64,000 bases of DNA from Eledone cirrhosa. Lineage: Eukaryota. The notes under the pieces are model-generated. The model worked only from the letters and a program-made list of their open reading frames with translations, was not told where the DNA came from and searched no databases. Made by a program: the position numbers and the translations under genes. This document shows positions 3,035-58,050 of the stretch, piece after piece; the first letter of the stretch is position 1; every line of letters starts with the position of its first letter. The stretch is from contig OZ024751.1 in NCBI GenBank assembly GCA_964016885.1, positions 47,058,001-47,122,000 on the forward strand, given 5' to 3'.

Positions 3035-3098
<64 letters not shown>

Positions 3099-3353
3099 TA
3101 CCCAAGGAAAATTCAACTGATGTTTCCTTGGCTATGTCAAAATTTATAAAACATACTTCGTATTTTATCTGATGAAAGCGTGCCAAAGTTTTTGGTACCC
3201 CTGAAATAGATATAATAGAATAAATATGGTTTTATGAATATAGTTTCCATTTATTTAATATCATTGTATAGAAATGCCTGGGACGGTTGGAGGGTCACTG
3301 ATGAAGGACTTACTTTTTCATATGCACCACCATTTGCAACGCGCAGCCATCAT

Positions 3354-10674: not shown

Positions 10675-10677
<3 letters not shown>

Positions 10678-10834
10678 TATTTAATATACAAAGGCTTCTA
10701 CAGGACTAGAACTGTTTCATTCCGGAGAAATCATCAGGAATGAAACATTTCTAGTCCTGTAGAAGCTTTTCTATATGAGATATTTATACTCTGCGCATAT
10801 TTATACTGTGGTTACCCCGATTGAACCCGGAATA

Positions 10835-20054: not shown

Positions 20055-21702
20055 ATACTTTAGGAGGGTCATGTTGCCAATAAGAAACACACGCACCAGT
20101 TGCTTTCATTTCAATTTATTATAATAAATTTATAAATTTAGGAATTTATAAATTTCCGGTTGGTTGGTTGGTTCCACAACCAGATGTTTGTTTATATATT
20201 GTCAAAGTTCTTTCGTCACACATTCTGTGACCTCTTCAGTGACTGGGGATTCTTTTCTTTGTTTTTTTTGTGCCTCTCCTTTGTTCTGTCCTACGCCATC
20301 ATGTTTTTGTGTGTGTGTTGTGTGCTTAGTTTGCGCATGAGTTACATCCGGGTGTCTGTGTGTGTTTATATTCGTTTATTTATTTGTTTACTTACATGTT
20401 ACTGGTTGGTTGTTTGTTCTATGTGCGTGTGTGTTTTCATTTTGTCCTTAATTGTAAGTTGTGATGTTGCTGTTCCACTCATGTTTTCTATTTAATTTTG
20501 GTTGTAATTCATTTATGTTTATTGCCTCTGTGATTTGTCTAAACATTGCGTTTTTTCTGTGTGTAGATTCTATTTTTATTTCTGTTCTCTAATTTACTCT
20601 TATGTTCTATTTTAGCATGTTGGTAGAGTACAGATGATTCTTTACTATCTTGAAGGTCTCGCCAGTGTTCATTTATCTGTTCCCCTATACTACGAGCTGT
20701 CTCACCTATGTACACTATATTTTTATCTCTACATTGTCCTTCAGTACATCTTATGCTATATACTACATTTCTAGTTTTACAGTTAATATGGGGGCTTAAT
20801 TTACAGATTATACATTTCTTATCTATACAGGGAGGTCTTTGAAAAGGGTATGTCTTGCTAATAGGTGTTTTTATGGAGGTACCTGGTCTTTCTACTATCT
20901 TAATATTGAGTTTATGTTTATCTAGGGCCCTTCTAAATCTGTAAGCTAATTCACCTCTAGGGGTTGTATCGATGAACATTACACTCTGGTATTTATTGCT
21001 ATCATACCATGAGTTTATTCTATTAGCCTTATTCTTAGTTCTTTCTATTCTATTCCAAAATTTGCTCCTATACAAGGGGCAGGTCCCATTTGTGTCATTA
21101 TTTACCATTTTTTCCCATTTGGTTCTGGCTCCTCTATACACTCTGATTTTATCTCTCTGATTGTAGCCAGAGAACTGCATACGGTGGATGAAGTGTTGTA
21201 TGTGTCTCTCTAGTTCTTCGGGGTTGCACATGCGGGACACGTTTCTCATCACCCGTACCAAATCCGAAATCAGTATGTTGATTTTCGTATGGTCCGAAAC
21301 AGTTGAGATGGGTTTGGCATAATGGGAATGGAGGATTTATTTTTTGTTATTAATGGTATCTAACCAGAGCTCTGTGTCTAGTACAGGTAATCGATGGTTG
21401 GGGTGTTTGCTTGGGTAGTCTATAGTAACTCTAATACTCTGGTGGATGGAGTTAGCTATTTGCTGGATTCTTTCCATTGTGTTTTTCTCTAATTCCTGAC
21501 TGTTCTTTAGTGGGGGTGTTTTAACTACGCTGTTTATATCATCAACGTAGCGGGAGTACATTATCAGGGTTAAGGGGCCTTCTAATTGTTCTTTCAGTTT
21601 AAGTTTAAGTCTACTGTCCCACCATACCATGAATAGGTTAGCTATGTCGCCTGCAATGCTTATACCAATGGCTGCTCCCTCCTCTTGGGCATATGTTTTT
21701 CC
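20050..21702 (-). mobile_element. Penelope-like element, 5'-truncated copy 2
   Basis: YAQEEGAAIG, YSRYVDDI, LPVLDTEL and GIY-YIG (VVYSIRC...YIGETAR); closely similar to 38195-39853; frameshifts and a deletion. Confidence 0.95.
20201..20244 (-). ncRNA. Hammerhead ribozyme in the PLE pseudo-LTR (copy 2)
   Basis: GTCA-CTGAAGA-GGTCACA-GAATG-TGTGAC-GAAA-GAAC-TT-TGAC. Confidence 0.75.
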
Positions 21703-21822
21703 AAGTGAAAGCAACTGGTGCGTGTGTTTCTTATTTGCAGCTTGACCCTCCCTAAGTATAACAATATCGGTTTCAACACACGTTTTCAGATAAAGAATCT
21801 TGCTAAACAAATTCAGAAACGA
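21703..21822 (+). repeat. Inverted 3'-terminal segment of the PLE at its 5' truncation point, with an extension of about 55 nt
   Basis: GTGAAAGCAACTGGTGCGTGTGTTTCTTATT... mirrors 20050-20110; extension also seen at 22035-22090 and 30815-30870. Confidence 0.85.
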
Positions 21823-21941
21823 TATATATATATATATATATATATCATATCATATCATATAGAAATGACTTCTACGGGGTTAAAACTACGGGTTTCATTC
21901 GTTTGAAATCATCTGGAAAGTTAAGTAATTTAATCACGGTT

Positions 21942-30929: not shown

Positions 30930-31361
30930 AAAGAATAGAGGTGTAACACACAAGTTATTATATATTGGTAAACGGAATAGAAAATGCTGACAAATTGTTC
31001 ACAGTTGAAAAATGGTTTAATTAGGAATAAAAGAGTATTAGTGATTGTATGGGTTAGTATTCAGTTGTGGTTTTAAGTTTTTAAGTTTTTACCGGTTGCG
31101 CATTTCTAAATGCTTTTCAAAAATAATTTTGAGATAGAGTGTCCGTGCTGTTTGCTCTGATCTGAGCAAACAGCACGGACACTCTATCTCAAAATTATTT
31201 TTGAAAAGCATTTAGAAATGCGCAACCGGTAAAAACTTAAAAACTTAAAACCACAACTGAATACTAACCCATACAATCACTAATACTCTTTTATTCCTAA
31301 TTAAACCATTTTTCAACTGTGAACAATTTGTCAGCATTTTCTATTCCGTTTACCAATATAT
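30926..31361. mobile_element. Family E long fold-back palindrome (arms about 198 bp, 6-nt loop at 31158-31163)
   Basis: Arms appear perfectly complementary; variant HHR at 31198-31235; relatives at 52912-53262 and 53840-54185. Confidence 0.85.
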
Positions 31362-32467: not shown

Positions 32468-33321
32468 TTACACAATAATCAAACTATGTTCAAATCATTT
32501 TATTGCTGACAATCGTTTCTTCCAAACGTTCGTTTGGACATATAATTAACCTCCTATTCAACTGAACAATCATATAGATACATGGATATTAATGTTGTCA
32601 TCAACAGTTTCGTATTTATAGAGTGGAATGGATGTGACAGAGATTACAAGAGAATTCTATAATAATTAAAGAGGCACAGAGTGGAATGCATGTGACAGAG
32701 ATTGCAAGAGAATAGTATAATAATTAAAGCAGTATAGAGAGTGCAAATGCGTTAGGCATATACAGGACAGTATATATATCTGAATCAAATCAAACTGCCT
32801 TTTACAAAATAAGTGTTTAGATAAAAACGTAGTCTATAAATACACAGTTAAAACTAATGATAATATATTTATCTATCTCGGTGCCATTTCTACAAAATTT
32901 AAAGATAGCTGGAATAACCATAATCACTCTTTCAGAAGATCCGATAAAAAATATTCTACTTCTCTTTCACATCTTATATGAAACTTAAAAAGCAAGAATA
33001 TAGACTATTCAATATCTTGGAAAACGATTTCAAAAGCACCTGCGTACTGATACATGGCTTTATCAAAATTCTGTAAATTCTGTATTGAAGAATTTTTTCA
33101 TATAATTAACTGTCAAAACTCTATTAATCTCAGAACAGAATTATTTAATTCTTGCAGACATCGCCAAAATTCTACATTCAGAACTATGTGTAACTTATAA
33201 TATTCCTATAAATCTTCAAAATTATCTTATCTTTTTTAACAATTTATATTTTTAATATATTAATATCTCTAAATCATAACATCTCTAATATTTGTAGTAC
33301 GTTCACCCTCAGCAAAATTTC

Positions 33322-33422
<101 letters not shown>

Positions 33423-34289
33423 TTATGTATATCTATATAATTTTAATTTTAATTTTTTAATTTTTTAATTTTTTATTTTTCCAATGACACCCTCTAAAGC
33501 TATTTTTGTAAACGTAGATCAATAACCATTAACTGATTTTAGGAAAATGTATCCTATTCAAGACGATGTTTAAACACTCATATTTCTTTCGACTAAATAA
33601 TTAATTACTCTCACACTAACGATTAACAAATAAAATCGGAGTTATGTTTCCTTTTTCAATCATATAAACTTATTATACATAACTCCGTTAATTTAATTTA
33701 AAACATTCTCAATGCCGAACAAGTTATCCAAATATATAAATTCATAATTTTAACTACCTATTTATTTACATAAAATACAAAATCATCTTCCCTCGTAACT
33801 CATATTAAGAACAACCACCTAAAACTTGAACTACTTATTTATTTATTTATTTATTTATCTACATAAAACACAAAATCAACTCCCTCGTAACTCATATTAT
33901 AAACAACTAATAATTGCAAATTATCTTTTTAATAAAAATACATATGCTATTATTAAAATATATATAGATATTTATATATTTAACCCACTACAATATTATA
34001 AGATAAATACTTACAAACATAATTCTCCTTATAAATATATACATAATATAGGTAAATATTCGAATTTATTTCCCCCAAAATTAACGTATATAAGTGGTCT
34101 TCTTTTTCCTTTTTCCTTTTCCTTTTTCTTCTTTTTCCTTTTTTCTTTTTCTTTCTTTCTCTCTTATTATTATATATCTCAACTTTCCATAGCGTTTAAA
34201 ATAACGGTTTTTCAATCATATAACTCAACCTTATTTACATATTCATTTGCATATTCATCCATAAGTTTGAAATATCCGTTCTTTAATCT

Positions 34290-34463
34290 CACTACCCAAG
34301 GAAAATTCAACTGATAAGGTATGGTTTCCTTGGCTATGTCAAAATTTATAAAACATTCTTTGTATTTTATCTGATAAAAGCGTACCAAAGTTTTTGGTAC
34401 CCTTGAAATATATATAATAGAATAAATATGCTTTTATAAATATAGTTTCCATTTATTTAATAT

Positions 34464-34468
<5 letters not shown>
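34290..34468 (+). mobile_element. Family B copy (HHR at 34363-34424, core mutated to CTGATAA)
   Basis: Near-identical to 3098-3268. Confidence 0.8.
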
Positions 34469-34520
<52 letters not shown>

Positions 34521-37124: not shown

Positions 37125-37559
37125 GGGGATTCCTTCCTTTGTTTCTGTGCCTCTCCTTTGTTCTGTCCTACGCCATTTTGTTTCTGTGTGTGTGTTGTGT
37201 GCTCAGTCTGCGCATGCGCCACATCCGGGTGTCTGTGTGTGTTTATGTTCATTTATTTATTTGTTTATTTACATGTTACTGGTTGGTTGTTTGTTCTATG
37301 TGTGTGTGTGTTTTCATTTTGTCCTTAATTGTAAGTTGTGATGTTGTTGTTCCACTCATATTTTCTATTTAATTTTGGTTGTAATTCTTTTATGTTTATT
37401 GCCTCTGTAATTTGTCTAAACATTGCGTCTTTTCTGTGTGTAGATTCTATTTTTATTTCTATGTTCTCAAATTTACCCTTGTGTTCTATTTTTAGCATGT
37501 TGGTAGAGTACAGATGATTCTTTACTATCTTGAAGGTCTCGCCAGTGTTCATTTATCAT

Positions 37560-39469
37560 TATGGAACAATGACGTGCCGGCGTTGTATGGGCTTCGAAAA
37601 GACCATAAAATGGGCAGTGACCCTGTCGCGGGACCACCAACACGGCCAGTCTGTGGAGCTAACATTGCTAGTAACTACAGACTGTCCTACTTCCTCTCCC
37701 TGATCATACGCCCCATCATCGAAATGTCCCTAGATGTATGTGACAACACGGAGGACCTCCTCGGCAGAATCGGCGTGAGTAACCGATCTAGGGACCTAAC
37801 AAACTGCATAATAGGTAGTATGGATGTTGTGTCCCTGTATCCATCTATTGACGTGGATTTTTCTGTGGAGAAATGCGTAGAAATGATCAGTGAGAGCAAT
37901 GTTGTGTTCCGTGGGATTGATACCAGTGAGCTGGGACTCCTACTTAAACTTACCTATAGTAATAATTACCTAGACACACATGACCTTAGCAACCTGTGCC
38001 CTACAAGACCAGCAAGAGGCAGACCACCTACCATTACCTCAATGGCCAAGAAAACCCACACAGATAGATGGAACGGGTGGACCAGAGCCATACGGACACC
38101 CGAAAACCACGATGAACTGAAGAAAATGATTGCACATGCGGTAGGGGCCAGCATAAAACTAACCCTTAAGGAACATATGTTTAAATTTAATGGAAAAACA
38201 TATGCCCAAGAGGAAGGAGCAGCCATTGGTGTTAGCATTGCAGGCGACATAGCTAACTTATTCATGGTATGGTGGGACAGTAGACTTAAACTGAAGCTTA
38301 AAGAAAATTAGAAGACCCCTTAACCCTGATAATGTACTCCCGCTACGTTGATGATATAAACATCGTAGTTAAGACACCCCCACTAGAGAACAGTCAGGAA
38401 CTAGAGAAAAACACAATGGAAAGCATCCAGCAAATAGCTAACTCCATCCACCAGAGCATTAGAGTTACTATAGACTACCCAAGTAAACACCCCAACCATC
38501 GATTACCTGTACTAGACACAGAGCTCTGGTTAGATACCATTAATAACAAAAAACAAATCCTCCATTCCCATTATGCCAAACCCATGACTTCCAAACATCT
38601 GATCCACCGAAACTCGGCCGTTTCGGACCATACCAAAATCAACATACTGATTGCGGATTTGGTACGGGTGATGAGAAACGTGTCCCGCATGTGCAACCCC
38701 GAAGAACTAGAGAGACACATTCAACATTTCATCCACCGTATGCAGTTCTCTGGCTACAATCAGAGAGATAAAATCAGAGTGTATAGAGGAGCCAGAACCA
38801 AATGGGAAAAAATGGTAAATAATGACATAAATGGGACCTGCCCCTTGTATAGGAGCAAATTTTGGAATAGAATAGAAAGAACTAGGAACAAGGCTAATAG
38901 AATAAACTCATGGTATGATAGCAATAAATACCAGAGTGTAATGTTCATCGATACAACCCCTAGAGGTGAATTAGCTTACAAATTTAGAAGGGCCCTAAAT
39001 AAACATAAACTCAATATTAAGATAGTAGAAAGACCAGGTACCTCCGTAAAAACACTTATTAGCAAGACATACCCTTTTCAAAGACCCTCATGTATAGATA
39101 AGAAATGTATAACCTGTAAAATAAGACCCCATATTAATTGTAAAACTAGAAATGTAGTGTATAGCATAAGATGTACTGAAGGACAATGTAGAGACAAAAA
39201 TATAGTGTACATAGGTGAGACAGCTCGTAGTGTAGGGGAACGGATAAATGAACACTGGCGAGACCTTCAAGATAGTAAAGAATCATCTGTACTCTACCAA
39301 CATGCTAAAATAGAACACAAGGGTAAATTACATAGAAATAAAAATAAAATCTACACACAGAAAAGACGCAATGTTTAGACAAATTACAGAGGCAATAAAC
39401 ATAAAAGAATTACAACCAAAATTAAATAGAAAATATGAGTGGAACAGCAACATCACAACTTACAATTAA
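37560..39469 (+). pseudogene. PLE reverse transcriptase-GIY-YIG endonuclease ORF (frameshifted near 38306 and 39330)
   Basis: PALYGLRKDHK..PPTRPV, SMDVVSLYPSI, QEEGAAIG, RYVDD, LPVLD, CIDKKCITC, VVYSIRC..YIGETAR..R..EH; C-terminus RQITEAINI..LNRKYE in a shifted frame. Confidence 0.95.
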
Positions 39470-52193: not shown

Positions 52194-52469
52194 AACATAG
52201 AACTATCTCAAATAACTCTCAGAATTGACCAAAGAGAAGATTGCAATAAAGTACTTTAAATTAAAGAAACCTTAAAAGCCTCACCCCAGGGGTAAACTTC
52301 TTCTCAAGCGGCCTACATATACAGGGTTTAACAAATTGCTCCACTTACTGCAGTTTCACAACCGTAACACAATTTGCACTGAAATCACAAGGACTTCAAA
52401 AGGTCAACTGGTGAGAAGGGACTGCTCTGTTTTGTCCGTTTGCCGTTGTCTTCGGAAATATATATATAT

Positions 52470-52625
52470 ACAATGATATTAAATATATGGAAACTATATT
52501 TATAAAACCATATTTATTCTATTATATATATTTCAAGCGTACCAAAATTTTGGTACCCTTGAAATATATATAATAGAATAAATATGGTTTTATAAATATA
52601 GTTTCCATTTATTTAATATCATTGT
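52470..52625. mobile_element. Family B fold-back copy centred on HHR stem II
   Basis: TTTC-AAGCGTACCAAAATTTTGGTACCCTT-GAAA. Confidence 0.85.
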
Positions 52626-52747
52626 TTATTATACTTTAGAAAACATGTCGAGTGCTCTGAATCAGTTATACACATTTATATTTGTTGAATTACCAACAAA
52701 TTGAATATCCCTTCTGCTTATATACACACACACACACACATATATAT

Positions 52748-52911: not shown

Positions 52912-53262
52912 TAGTAAAAAGGAAAAGAAAATGCTGACAAATTTTTCCCAGTGAAAAATAGTTTAATTAGGAATAAGTATAAATTAGTAATAAGTATTAG
53001 TTAGTATTCAGTTTTAGTTTTAAGTGTTTACCGGTTGCTTTTCAAAAATAATTCACTCTGTCTCAAAATTATTTTTGAAAAGCATTAGAAATGCGCAACC
53101 GGTAAAAACTTAAAACTAAAACTGAATACCAACTAATACTTATTACTAGCTATACTTATTCCTAATTAAACTATTTTTCACTGGGAAAAATTTGTCAGCA
53201 TTTTCTTTTCCTTTTTATTTATATATTTATTTATCACAACTCGTGTGTCACACCTCTATTTT
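52912..53262. mobile_element. Family E fold-back copy
   Basis: Arms flank about 53055; variant core TTGAAAA...GCAACCGGTA at about 53072-53108. Confidence 0.8.
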
Positions 53263-53456: not shown

Positions 53457-53745
53457 AAGCTTGAAACTAGTACAGTGTTCCTTTGTCAGTGTTGAACAAA
53501 CGAGCAACGATGGTTGCTGGACTCTACGGCTTAATACGGGATGTTTGTTTACAAACACACCGAGCATTGTAATAGATGTTCGGTGAATCCATACGTACAT
53601 ATATATATGTGTGCATGTATGTATGTATATATATATACATACTACTGTACGTTTGTATACATATATGTATGTACGTGTACATACATTTATAACTAAGTAA
53701 CAGCCGTACTAAGAGTGGGGAATGAAATTTCGTTTCATTTTTTCC

Positions 53746-53839: not shown

Positions 53840-54183
53840 TTTAAAAGAATAGAGGTGTAACACACGAGTTGTGATATATTGGTAAAAGGAAAAGAAAATG
53901 CTGACGAATTTTTCCCAGTGAAAAATAGTTTAATTAGGAATAAGTATAAATTAGTAATAAGTATTGGTTAGTATTCAGTTTTAGTTTTAAGTGTTTACCG
54001 GTTGCGCATTTCTAATGCTTTTCAAAAATAATTTTGAGACAGCGCGCCCGTGATGTTTGCTCTAATCTGATCAGTTTTGGAAATTCTTCCTGTTTTATGT
54101 GAAAAAAGTGGCTCCAGAGGTATTAAGATTTGGTTGGTTGTTGAATGTCACGTGAATGAGTACTATAAATTTCGCGCCAATTC

Positions 54184-57589: not shown

Positions 57590-58046
57590 GCAAAAGTTCT
57601 ATTTAAATTGTTGGGATACAACAAGTAAATATTTTTATAACTGATATAAAGCACTCGACAAGTATTTGGAGTAGATATACGATATTAATAAATGGAAACT
57701 ATATTTATAAAACCATATTTATTTCATTATACATATTTCAAGGATACCAAGTTAAATTATGGTATGCCTTCATCAGACAAAATACAATATATATCAGTTT
57801 TACAAATAAGCATTGTAATTGTCCTTAACACTAAGACTTACTAATATAATATAAACAAACCACTATCCTGATGTCCTCCAAAAGTAATGGTCGCATTTTG
57901 AAAGGGTACGTCAATGCTTATTTGTAAAACTGATATATATTGTATTTTGTCTGATGAAGGCATACCATAATTTAACTTGGTATCCTTGAAATATGTATAA
58001 TGAAATAAATATGGTTTTATAAATATAGTTTCCATTTATTAATATC

Positions 58047-58050
<4 letters not shown>
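57590..58050. mobile_element. Family B element with inverted duplication of about 140 bp; HHRs at 57720-57784 (minus) and 57943-58007 (plus)
   Basis: TATTTTGT-CTGATGA-AGGCATACCA...TGGTATCCTT-GAAA-TATGTA-TA-ATGAAATA; arms 57675-57815 and 57912-58052. Confidence 0.85.

Follow-up and report, generated by a model that had tools for sequence, protein, structure and literature searches.

The palindrome at positions 52470–52625 of a 64,000-nucleotide stretch of the Eledone cirrhosa genome (contig OZ024751.1; hereafter the window) raises the question of how the inverted pseudo-LTRs (pLTRs) of Penelope-like elements (PLEs) are formed, as the formation of tandem and inverted ends is described as unresolved in the relevant passages of PMC8557442 and PMC11167929. 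The structure of an inverted pLTR with a tail and the self-priming hypothesis are both already published, and the 2013 account (PMC3846280) attributes junction palindromes to self-priming on antisense RNA, a scheme which also predicts that the loop lies on the longer arm. The first-pass annotation of the window proposed that cDNA self-priming on a hammerhead ribozyme, beginning at the foot of stem II, is one route to this structure.

Anatomy of the palindrome

The segment is a palindrome with 78-bp arms, in which 76 of the 78 arm positions are paired; the unpaired ones are 52486 and C52538, which stands opposite C52557. Inspection of the centre confirmed the base-level description in the first-pass annotation: the asymmetric hairpin formed by hammerhead stem II in family B is kept with its native C/C mismatch, and TTTC is found at 52531–52534 in place of the CTGATGA (3169) or CTGATAA (34371) of linear copies. 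An inverted-repeat finder run on the window gave an output swamped by (TA)n. Hereafter, we count the G of GAAA as position +1 of family B. The features of the insertion and of the linear copies used for comparison are as follows.

52458..52469, no strand: (TA)n target tract on the left side of the insertion
52470..52534, minus strand: short arm in inverted orientation, covering the pLTR between GAAA (+1) and the first fixed 3′ end (about +65)
52535..52560, plus strand: hairpin of hammerhead stem II in its native form, including the C52538/C52557 mismatch, with the junction placed between 52535 and 52538
52561..52580, plus strand: minimal type I hammerhead, 3′ half only, with GAAA, a palindromic stem III and the 3′ strand of stem I but without CTGATGA
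52561..52625, plus strand: direct arm, portion common to the inverted arm
52626..52722, plus strand: one-sided tail of about 95 nt, up to the second fixed 3′ end (about +162)
33000..34470, plus strand: longer linear copy of family B, comprising the end of the GIY-YIG region, the 3′ UTR and the pLTR
34291..34470, plus strand: pLTR of the longer linear copy, Inr-like TCACT at its start, core CTGATAA at 34371
3098..3268, plus strand: short family B copy beginning at the Inr-like site, CTGATGA intact at 3169

The 8-nt loop of the palindrome, AAAATTTT, differs from that of the copy at 34371 and occurs as a native variant in linear genomic copies, indicating that the stem II hairpin is intact at this locus, as had been claimed. 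The predicted hammerhead cut would presumably fall after 52572, judging from the hammerhead consensus. The CUGANGA core is absent from both strands, which places this copy outside the active hammerheads, and the view that stem II junctions delete the catalytic core likewise held, with CTGATGA gone. One arm stops at +65 and the other at +162 of the element, counted from GAAA, and the two arms differ from each other by one base; in longer family B copies the tail stops about 50 nt upstream of the ORF start. Both ends of the insertion are inside TA/CA repeats, in which a target-site duplication is not resolvable. From the identity of the element and the anatomy of the arms, the locus is the known PLE unit, namely a head-to-head 5′-truncated insertion with an inverted pLTR and a one-sided tail, and it is one of over a thousand ordinary stubs.

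An assembly or library fold-back could in principle produce such a palindrome, and no public contig or read bridging its centre was found. However, the mirror symmetry stops at the element boundaries, the arms differ, and the junction is found at 46 loci with different flanks and loop variants, on which grounds a library artefact was rejected. Three further loci carry the identical foot-type junction with other flanks and loops (a reversed-pattern control gave 0), and in public contigs from two runs of one sample the left arm is connected to its unique left flank. An artefact is thus highly improbable.

Identity of family B

Family B has 1546 exact intact-core hammerhead matches in the 3-Gb genome. 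A single ORF encoding RT followed by a C-terminal GIY-YIG is linked to its pLTR; it is broken in the longer copies, and 60 relatives of about 690–940 aa were found. The order is tail, ORF start, RT, EN and pLTR in L195, and pLTR, tail and ORF start in L204, and the ORF start was defined from these two copies. The protein has a CxCX5C linker, lacks CCHH, and has CxxC and CxH flanking the conserved E and N; DKT is present as KSDKT in L195 and L204, both of which have RWR at the RWK position, and the relatives have RWK or RWR. The pattern is completed by a canonical hammerhead within the pLTR and by flanks that show (TA)n targets. A Pfam search of the protein gave no significant match, and an Rfam scan showed no hammerhead among the best 150 of 440 matches, those being microsatellite-driven miRNA look-alikes.

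Judged by the match of these predicted features to the description in PMC8557442, family B is a Hydra-type PLE of the Hydra clade. The linker, the absence of CCHH, DKT and CxxC/CxH are described there as marks of this clade of C-terminal EN+ PLEs, and RT followed by GIY-YIG, a canonical hammerhead and (TA)n targets are shared as well; the description gives RWK, whereas the one family B N-terminus read has RWR. The insertion unit also resembles that of EN+ PLEs as described by Arkhipova et al. (2013, PMC3846280) and Craig et al. (2021, PMC8557442), with head-to-head arms, a junction palindrome, a tail on one arm and a microsatellite target, although the tail given there is 30–40 compared with about 95 nt in family B.

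Junction classes across the genome

A head-to-head pair was defined as two arms with an exact 16-nt motif in each, at most 300 nt apart, and 1045 such pairs of family B were found in the genome; all counts require exact motifs and are therefore biased to young copies. The centre was at stem II (gap 44–56) in 31 of the 1045, comprising by eye 24 joined in register with the mismatch corrected, three of the foot type and four others. Junctions in register with stem II numbered 27, compared with about 5 expected if the two ends were independent (about 5-fold, P = 8 × 10⁻¹²), and this excess indicates that complementarity guides the joining. This part of the earlier proposal, a register set by stem II, was therefore retained.

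Dedicated patterns detected 46 loci with stem II palindromes. The C/C mismatch was corrected in 42 of them (81 strand matches), mostly with the asymmetric native loop, and the foot-type junction was found at the remaining four (three among the 1045 pairs). The usual stem II junction is thus in the upper stem, with the foot accounting for about 1 in 10, and the foot as the usual turn was rejected.

As a control we used a non-ribozyme hairpin at −108 to −71, whose loop of about 20 nt is longer than that of stem II. About 23 in-register junctions were counted by eye among the 43 listed pairs in the matching gap window, a number that is inflated by the overlap of this hairpin with the start-site peak and makes it an imperfect control. 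A narrower pattern for these junctions gave 2 loci and missed most subfamilies. The non-ribozyme hairpin guides about as many junctions as stem II does, contrary to the idea of the ribozyme hairpin as a special guide, and family B shows that inversion does not depend on any special contribution of the ribozyme. Many other junctions have spacers of 50–100 nt with 1–5 nt of microhomology.

Several individual loci were recorded in addition. At G000:C2:98042682 the pair is joined in register with hammerhead stem I, and one arm starts at about the predicted cleavage site. Complex junctions were seen at L009, L082, L091 and L106, where either the upstream hairpin and stem II are connected by microhomology jumps or a single insertion contains two turns. 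L196 and L153 contain long ORF-bearing segments inverted relative to the adjacent pLTR, indicating that inversion extends beyond short stubs.

Arm ends and the start-like site

We mapped by hand the 100 arm 5′ ends of the first 50 pairs, all on contig 1 (L065–L114, including two duplicates). Four ends were downstream of GAAA, seven in stem II, seven in the core, 32 at −98 to −34, 48 at −113 to −99 and two further upstream. Enrichment of breakpoints at stem II, which the first-pass annotation had expected from such a map, was not observed: stem II was the poorest upstream zone, with 0.27 ends per nt compared with 3.2 per nt at the start-like site, and stem II as a breakpoint hotspot was rejected with 7 of the 100 arm ends there.

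The main peak coincides with an Inr-like site, roughly 80 nt upstream of the core, and starts at TCACTATCC. The 5′ ends of family B copies at window positions 34291 and 3098 and in L175–L194 also peaked at the Inr-like TCACTATCC, and a non-native G was overrepresented immediately before it. Among the first 100 of 267 matches to ACTATCC, the preceding base was the native C in 71, G in 20 and A in nine, T not being counted. The G was at a junction in 19 of the 20 cases, about seven of which were possibly templated by the partner arm. An Inr-like TCACT is described in a rotifer pLTR (PMC3846280), and an extra G is described as a mark of capped 5′ ends in L1 insertions (PMC11702581). These patterns suggest that run-off at a capped RNA start, the extra G possibly being a copy of the cap, may explain both the peak and the G. 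At the other end, short arms and linear copies share one 3′ end site.

Tail rule and loop orientation

Exactly one arm was tailed in 48 of the 50 contig-1 pairs (P = 2 × 10⁻¹²) and in 37 of the 46 stem II pairs. A short cDNA cannot supply the tail, so a single self-primed cDNA requires the native loop to be on the longer, tailed arm. We applied this prediction to all 46 stem II palindromes, of which 28 were informative and 18 were not, owing to a symmetric loop (nine) or to a tail on both arms or neither (nine). The native loop or mismatch was on the tailed arm in 11 of the 28 and on the short arm in 17 (P = 0.34 against 50:50), after hand correction of three of the scripted calls (12 and 16). 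Of 30 other inversions, 14 had the unpaired spacer on the tailed arm and 16 had it on the short arm, leaving out 20 of the 50 pairs (one duplicate, five complex, and 14 with less than 13 nt difference or no single tail).

These counts bear on the model in which one cDNA is copied through stem II, primes itself, copies back and then switches, at a TA-rich site, to the other end of the target. This model predicts one long and one short arm that are nearly identical, the short-arm end is TA-rich, and the loop is on the tailed arm at the 52470 locus and 10 others. However, a cDNA of the short arm would be without its partner's tail in the 17 stem II pairs and 16 other pairs with the loop or spacer on that side. 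Pairs with at most one arm difference split 5 tailed to 7 short, so that young copies are unbiased too. Single-cDNA self-priming as a general route is contradicted unless spacers flip after insertion, and we consider it improbable; this half of the earlier proposal did not stand. The loop is on the longer strand at the 52470 locus, as snap-back of a single cDNA requires, whereas it is not so family-wide; the locus fits either mechanism, and its base-level pattern is no proof of self-priming. The counts are likewise a misfit with the self-priming prediction as set out in PMC3846280.

Flipping after insertion is part of another explanation, in which the palindromes originate or are reshaped at the DNA level, a replication template switch at the quasi-palindrome correcting the C/C mismatch and flipping the loops. 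Correction of a quasi-palindrome by template switch yields a corrected stem with a retained loop, and this combination is what most of the 42 corrected palindromes show. Against this, the arms terminate at both retrotransposition end sites with (TA)n on each side, the uncorrected hairpin is matched by 1546 linear copies, and loop orientation did not depend on the divergence of the arms (P = 0.79), which argues against flipping after insertion. We regard this origin as slightly less probable even than the single-cDNA model. Partner arms differed by 5.3%, compared with 10.6% between loci (20 pairs). In the stem II pairs (n = 31), 23 variants were shared and 36 were arm-specific, and the raw divergence was 9.4% between partners and 11.5% between loci, figures which are inflated by truncated arms.

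A mixed route was also considered, in which both target ends prime and one cDNA, having halted in the 5′ strand of stem II, folds back on itself and extends a plus strand that then anneals to the second cDNA. Snap-back would be open to either of the two cDNAs, and this would give the 11:17 split; the stem II hairpin of the cDNA is stable in cis (−7.9 kcal/mol for the whole and −5.1 for the upper stem), cDNA snap-back is documented in R2 (PMC11371274), and the 5-fold excess of in-register junctions is in accordance with it. Nevertheless, arm ends are not enriched in stem II, and because the hairpin with the longer loop guides about as many junctions and many others have long spacers with microhomology, short loops are not clearly favored. 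This route seems unlikely, though less so than the two preceding explanations.

Other families in the window

The first-pass annotation had placed the starts of family F at 53457 and of the family A copies in or at stem II. For family F the start in the stem II loop was correct, but the copy is linear and 5′-truncated, with (TA)n at the join, and a fold-back was rejected. Family A is without CTGANGA; in two of four long copies ACCCC(G)-TTGA(G/C)AA was found by eye before a long stem II, which by its sequence is a predicted U3-A8 variant hammerhead core, and the notion that family A lacks a hammerhead was dropped. Its 5′ ends (window 1580, 9791, 10435, 51884, 55271, 52749 and 5624; L012, L031, L108 and L137), some with an extra G, cluster within about 15 nt at TTAGTCC in the long stem II loop, and G preceded AGTCC in four of 13 contexts. 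The ends are thus in stem II as proposed, but the native loop was retained in none of the head-to-head pairs shown for family A (about 20), and the cluster looks like a putative start site rather than a hairpin turn.

A different PLE has long RT and GIY-YIG frames at 37496–39375 (plus strand) and a second piece at 20542–21849 (minus strand), with inverted hammerhead-bearing ends. Its hammerheads are as follows.

39664, plus strand: hammerhead
37119, minus strand: hammerhead
20239, minus strand: hammerhead

In another Hydra-like family (window 10677–10783; L155–L174), the stub keeps CTGATGA on one arm only; the many 758-aa open frames of this family in the genome indicate that it was likely recently active. 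Head-to-head palindromes of yet another family are at 30965–31356, 52915–53217 and 53848–54042, the first of which is 99.5% symmetric and so likely very young. At 57680–58047, a relative of family B has kept both of its hammerhead cores intact, and its spacer, of about 130 nt, is asymmetric.

Proposed mechanism and its relation to known systems

With the anatomy, the family, the two fixed 3′ ends, the rule of one tail per pair and the junction statistics established, we propose, with a probability of roughly 60%, that the palindrome is explained by priming at both ends of a (TA)n target, the two cDNAs being joined through complementary 3′ ends in stem II. Each cut end of the target would prime a cDNA at one of two fixed sites of the element RNA, and both cDNAs would be copied from one RNA, most of them extending to its capped 5′ end near −113. 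The two same-sense cDNAs would then anneal at any stretch of complementarity between their 3′ ends, after which flaps would be trimmed, gaps filled in and the strands ligated. The orientation counts, the tail rule and the closeness of partner arms fit this scheme. One such annealing place would be stem II, used by about 3% of pairs, the C/C mismatch would survive only with a junction at the foot, in about 1 in 10 of the stem II junctions, and loss of the ribozyme core would be a by-product of joining. Junctions cannot directly separate pairing between two cDNAs from pairing within one, and snap-back in cis followed by annealing to a second cDNA gives identical products; one point against two-ended priming is that the 52470 locus has the orientation predicted by self-priming.

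Used together as a strand marker, the C/C mismatch and the asymmetric loop lead to a wider statement, which we hold at a little better than even: the inverted pseudo-LTRs of PLEs, in contrast to the published view, would be made not by self-priming but by coordinated priming of two ends from two fixed sites of one capped RNA, the cDNAs being joined through any complementary ends.

The in vitro work on Poseidon PAc (Frangieh et al. 2024, PMC11167929), as reported, agrees with several of these steps. The PLE protein cut and extended both strands, synthesis started at two internal RNA sites bounding the tail, and hammerhead cleavage was not needed. That element belongs to another clade, the joining of the two products and inversion breaks are outside the study as presented, and the start site reported was alike on both strands, so that the rule of one long and one short arm is not explained by that work. 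For the target-primed elements R2 (PMC11371274) and L1 (PMC11702581), the literature describes self-priming of cDNA 3′ ends, priming from two DNA ends, joins at microhomologies and an additional G derived from the cap. Twin priming of L1, as described, mostly gives adjacent, non-overlapping segments, whereas family B arms duplicate the same 60–170 nt, and in the R2 snap-back described one cDNA suffices. The available text of a retrozyme preprint (10.64898/2026.07.22.740005) does not treat inversions. Searches of the openly accessible literature found no paper testing loop orientation in PLE palindromes, and none of the titles and abstracts listed concerned twin priming of PLE inversions.

The 52470 palindrome is a real feature of a known kind and of a minor junction class, and its value is in the family-wide test. 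Family B provides a countable test between published self-priming and two-ended priming, and loop orientation relative to the tail is a simple readout for the existing in vitro PLE system. If true, two-ended priming would account by a single rule for the inversion, for the tail on one side and for the palindrome at the junction.
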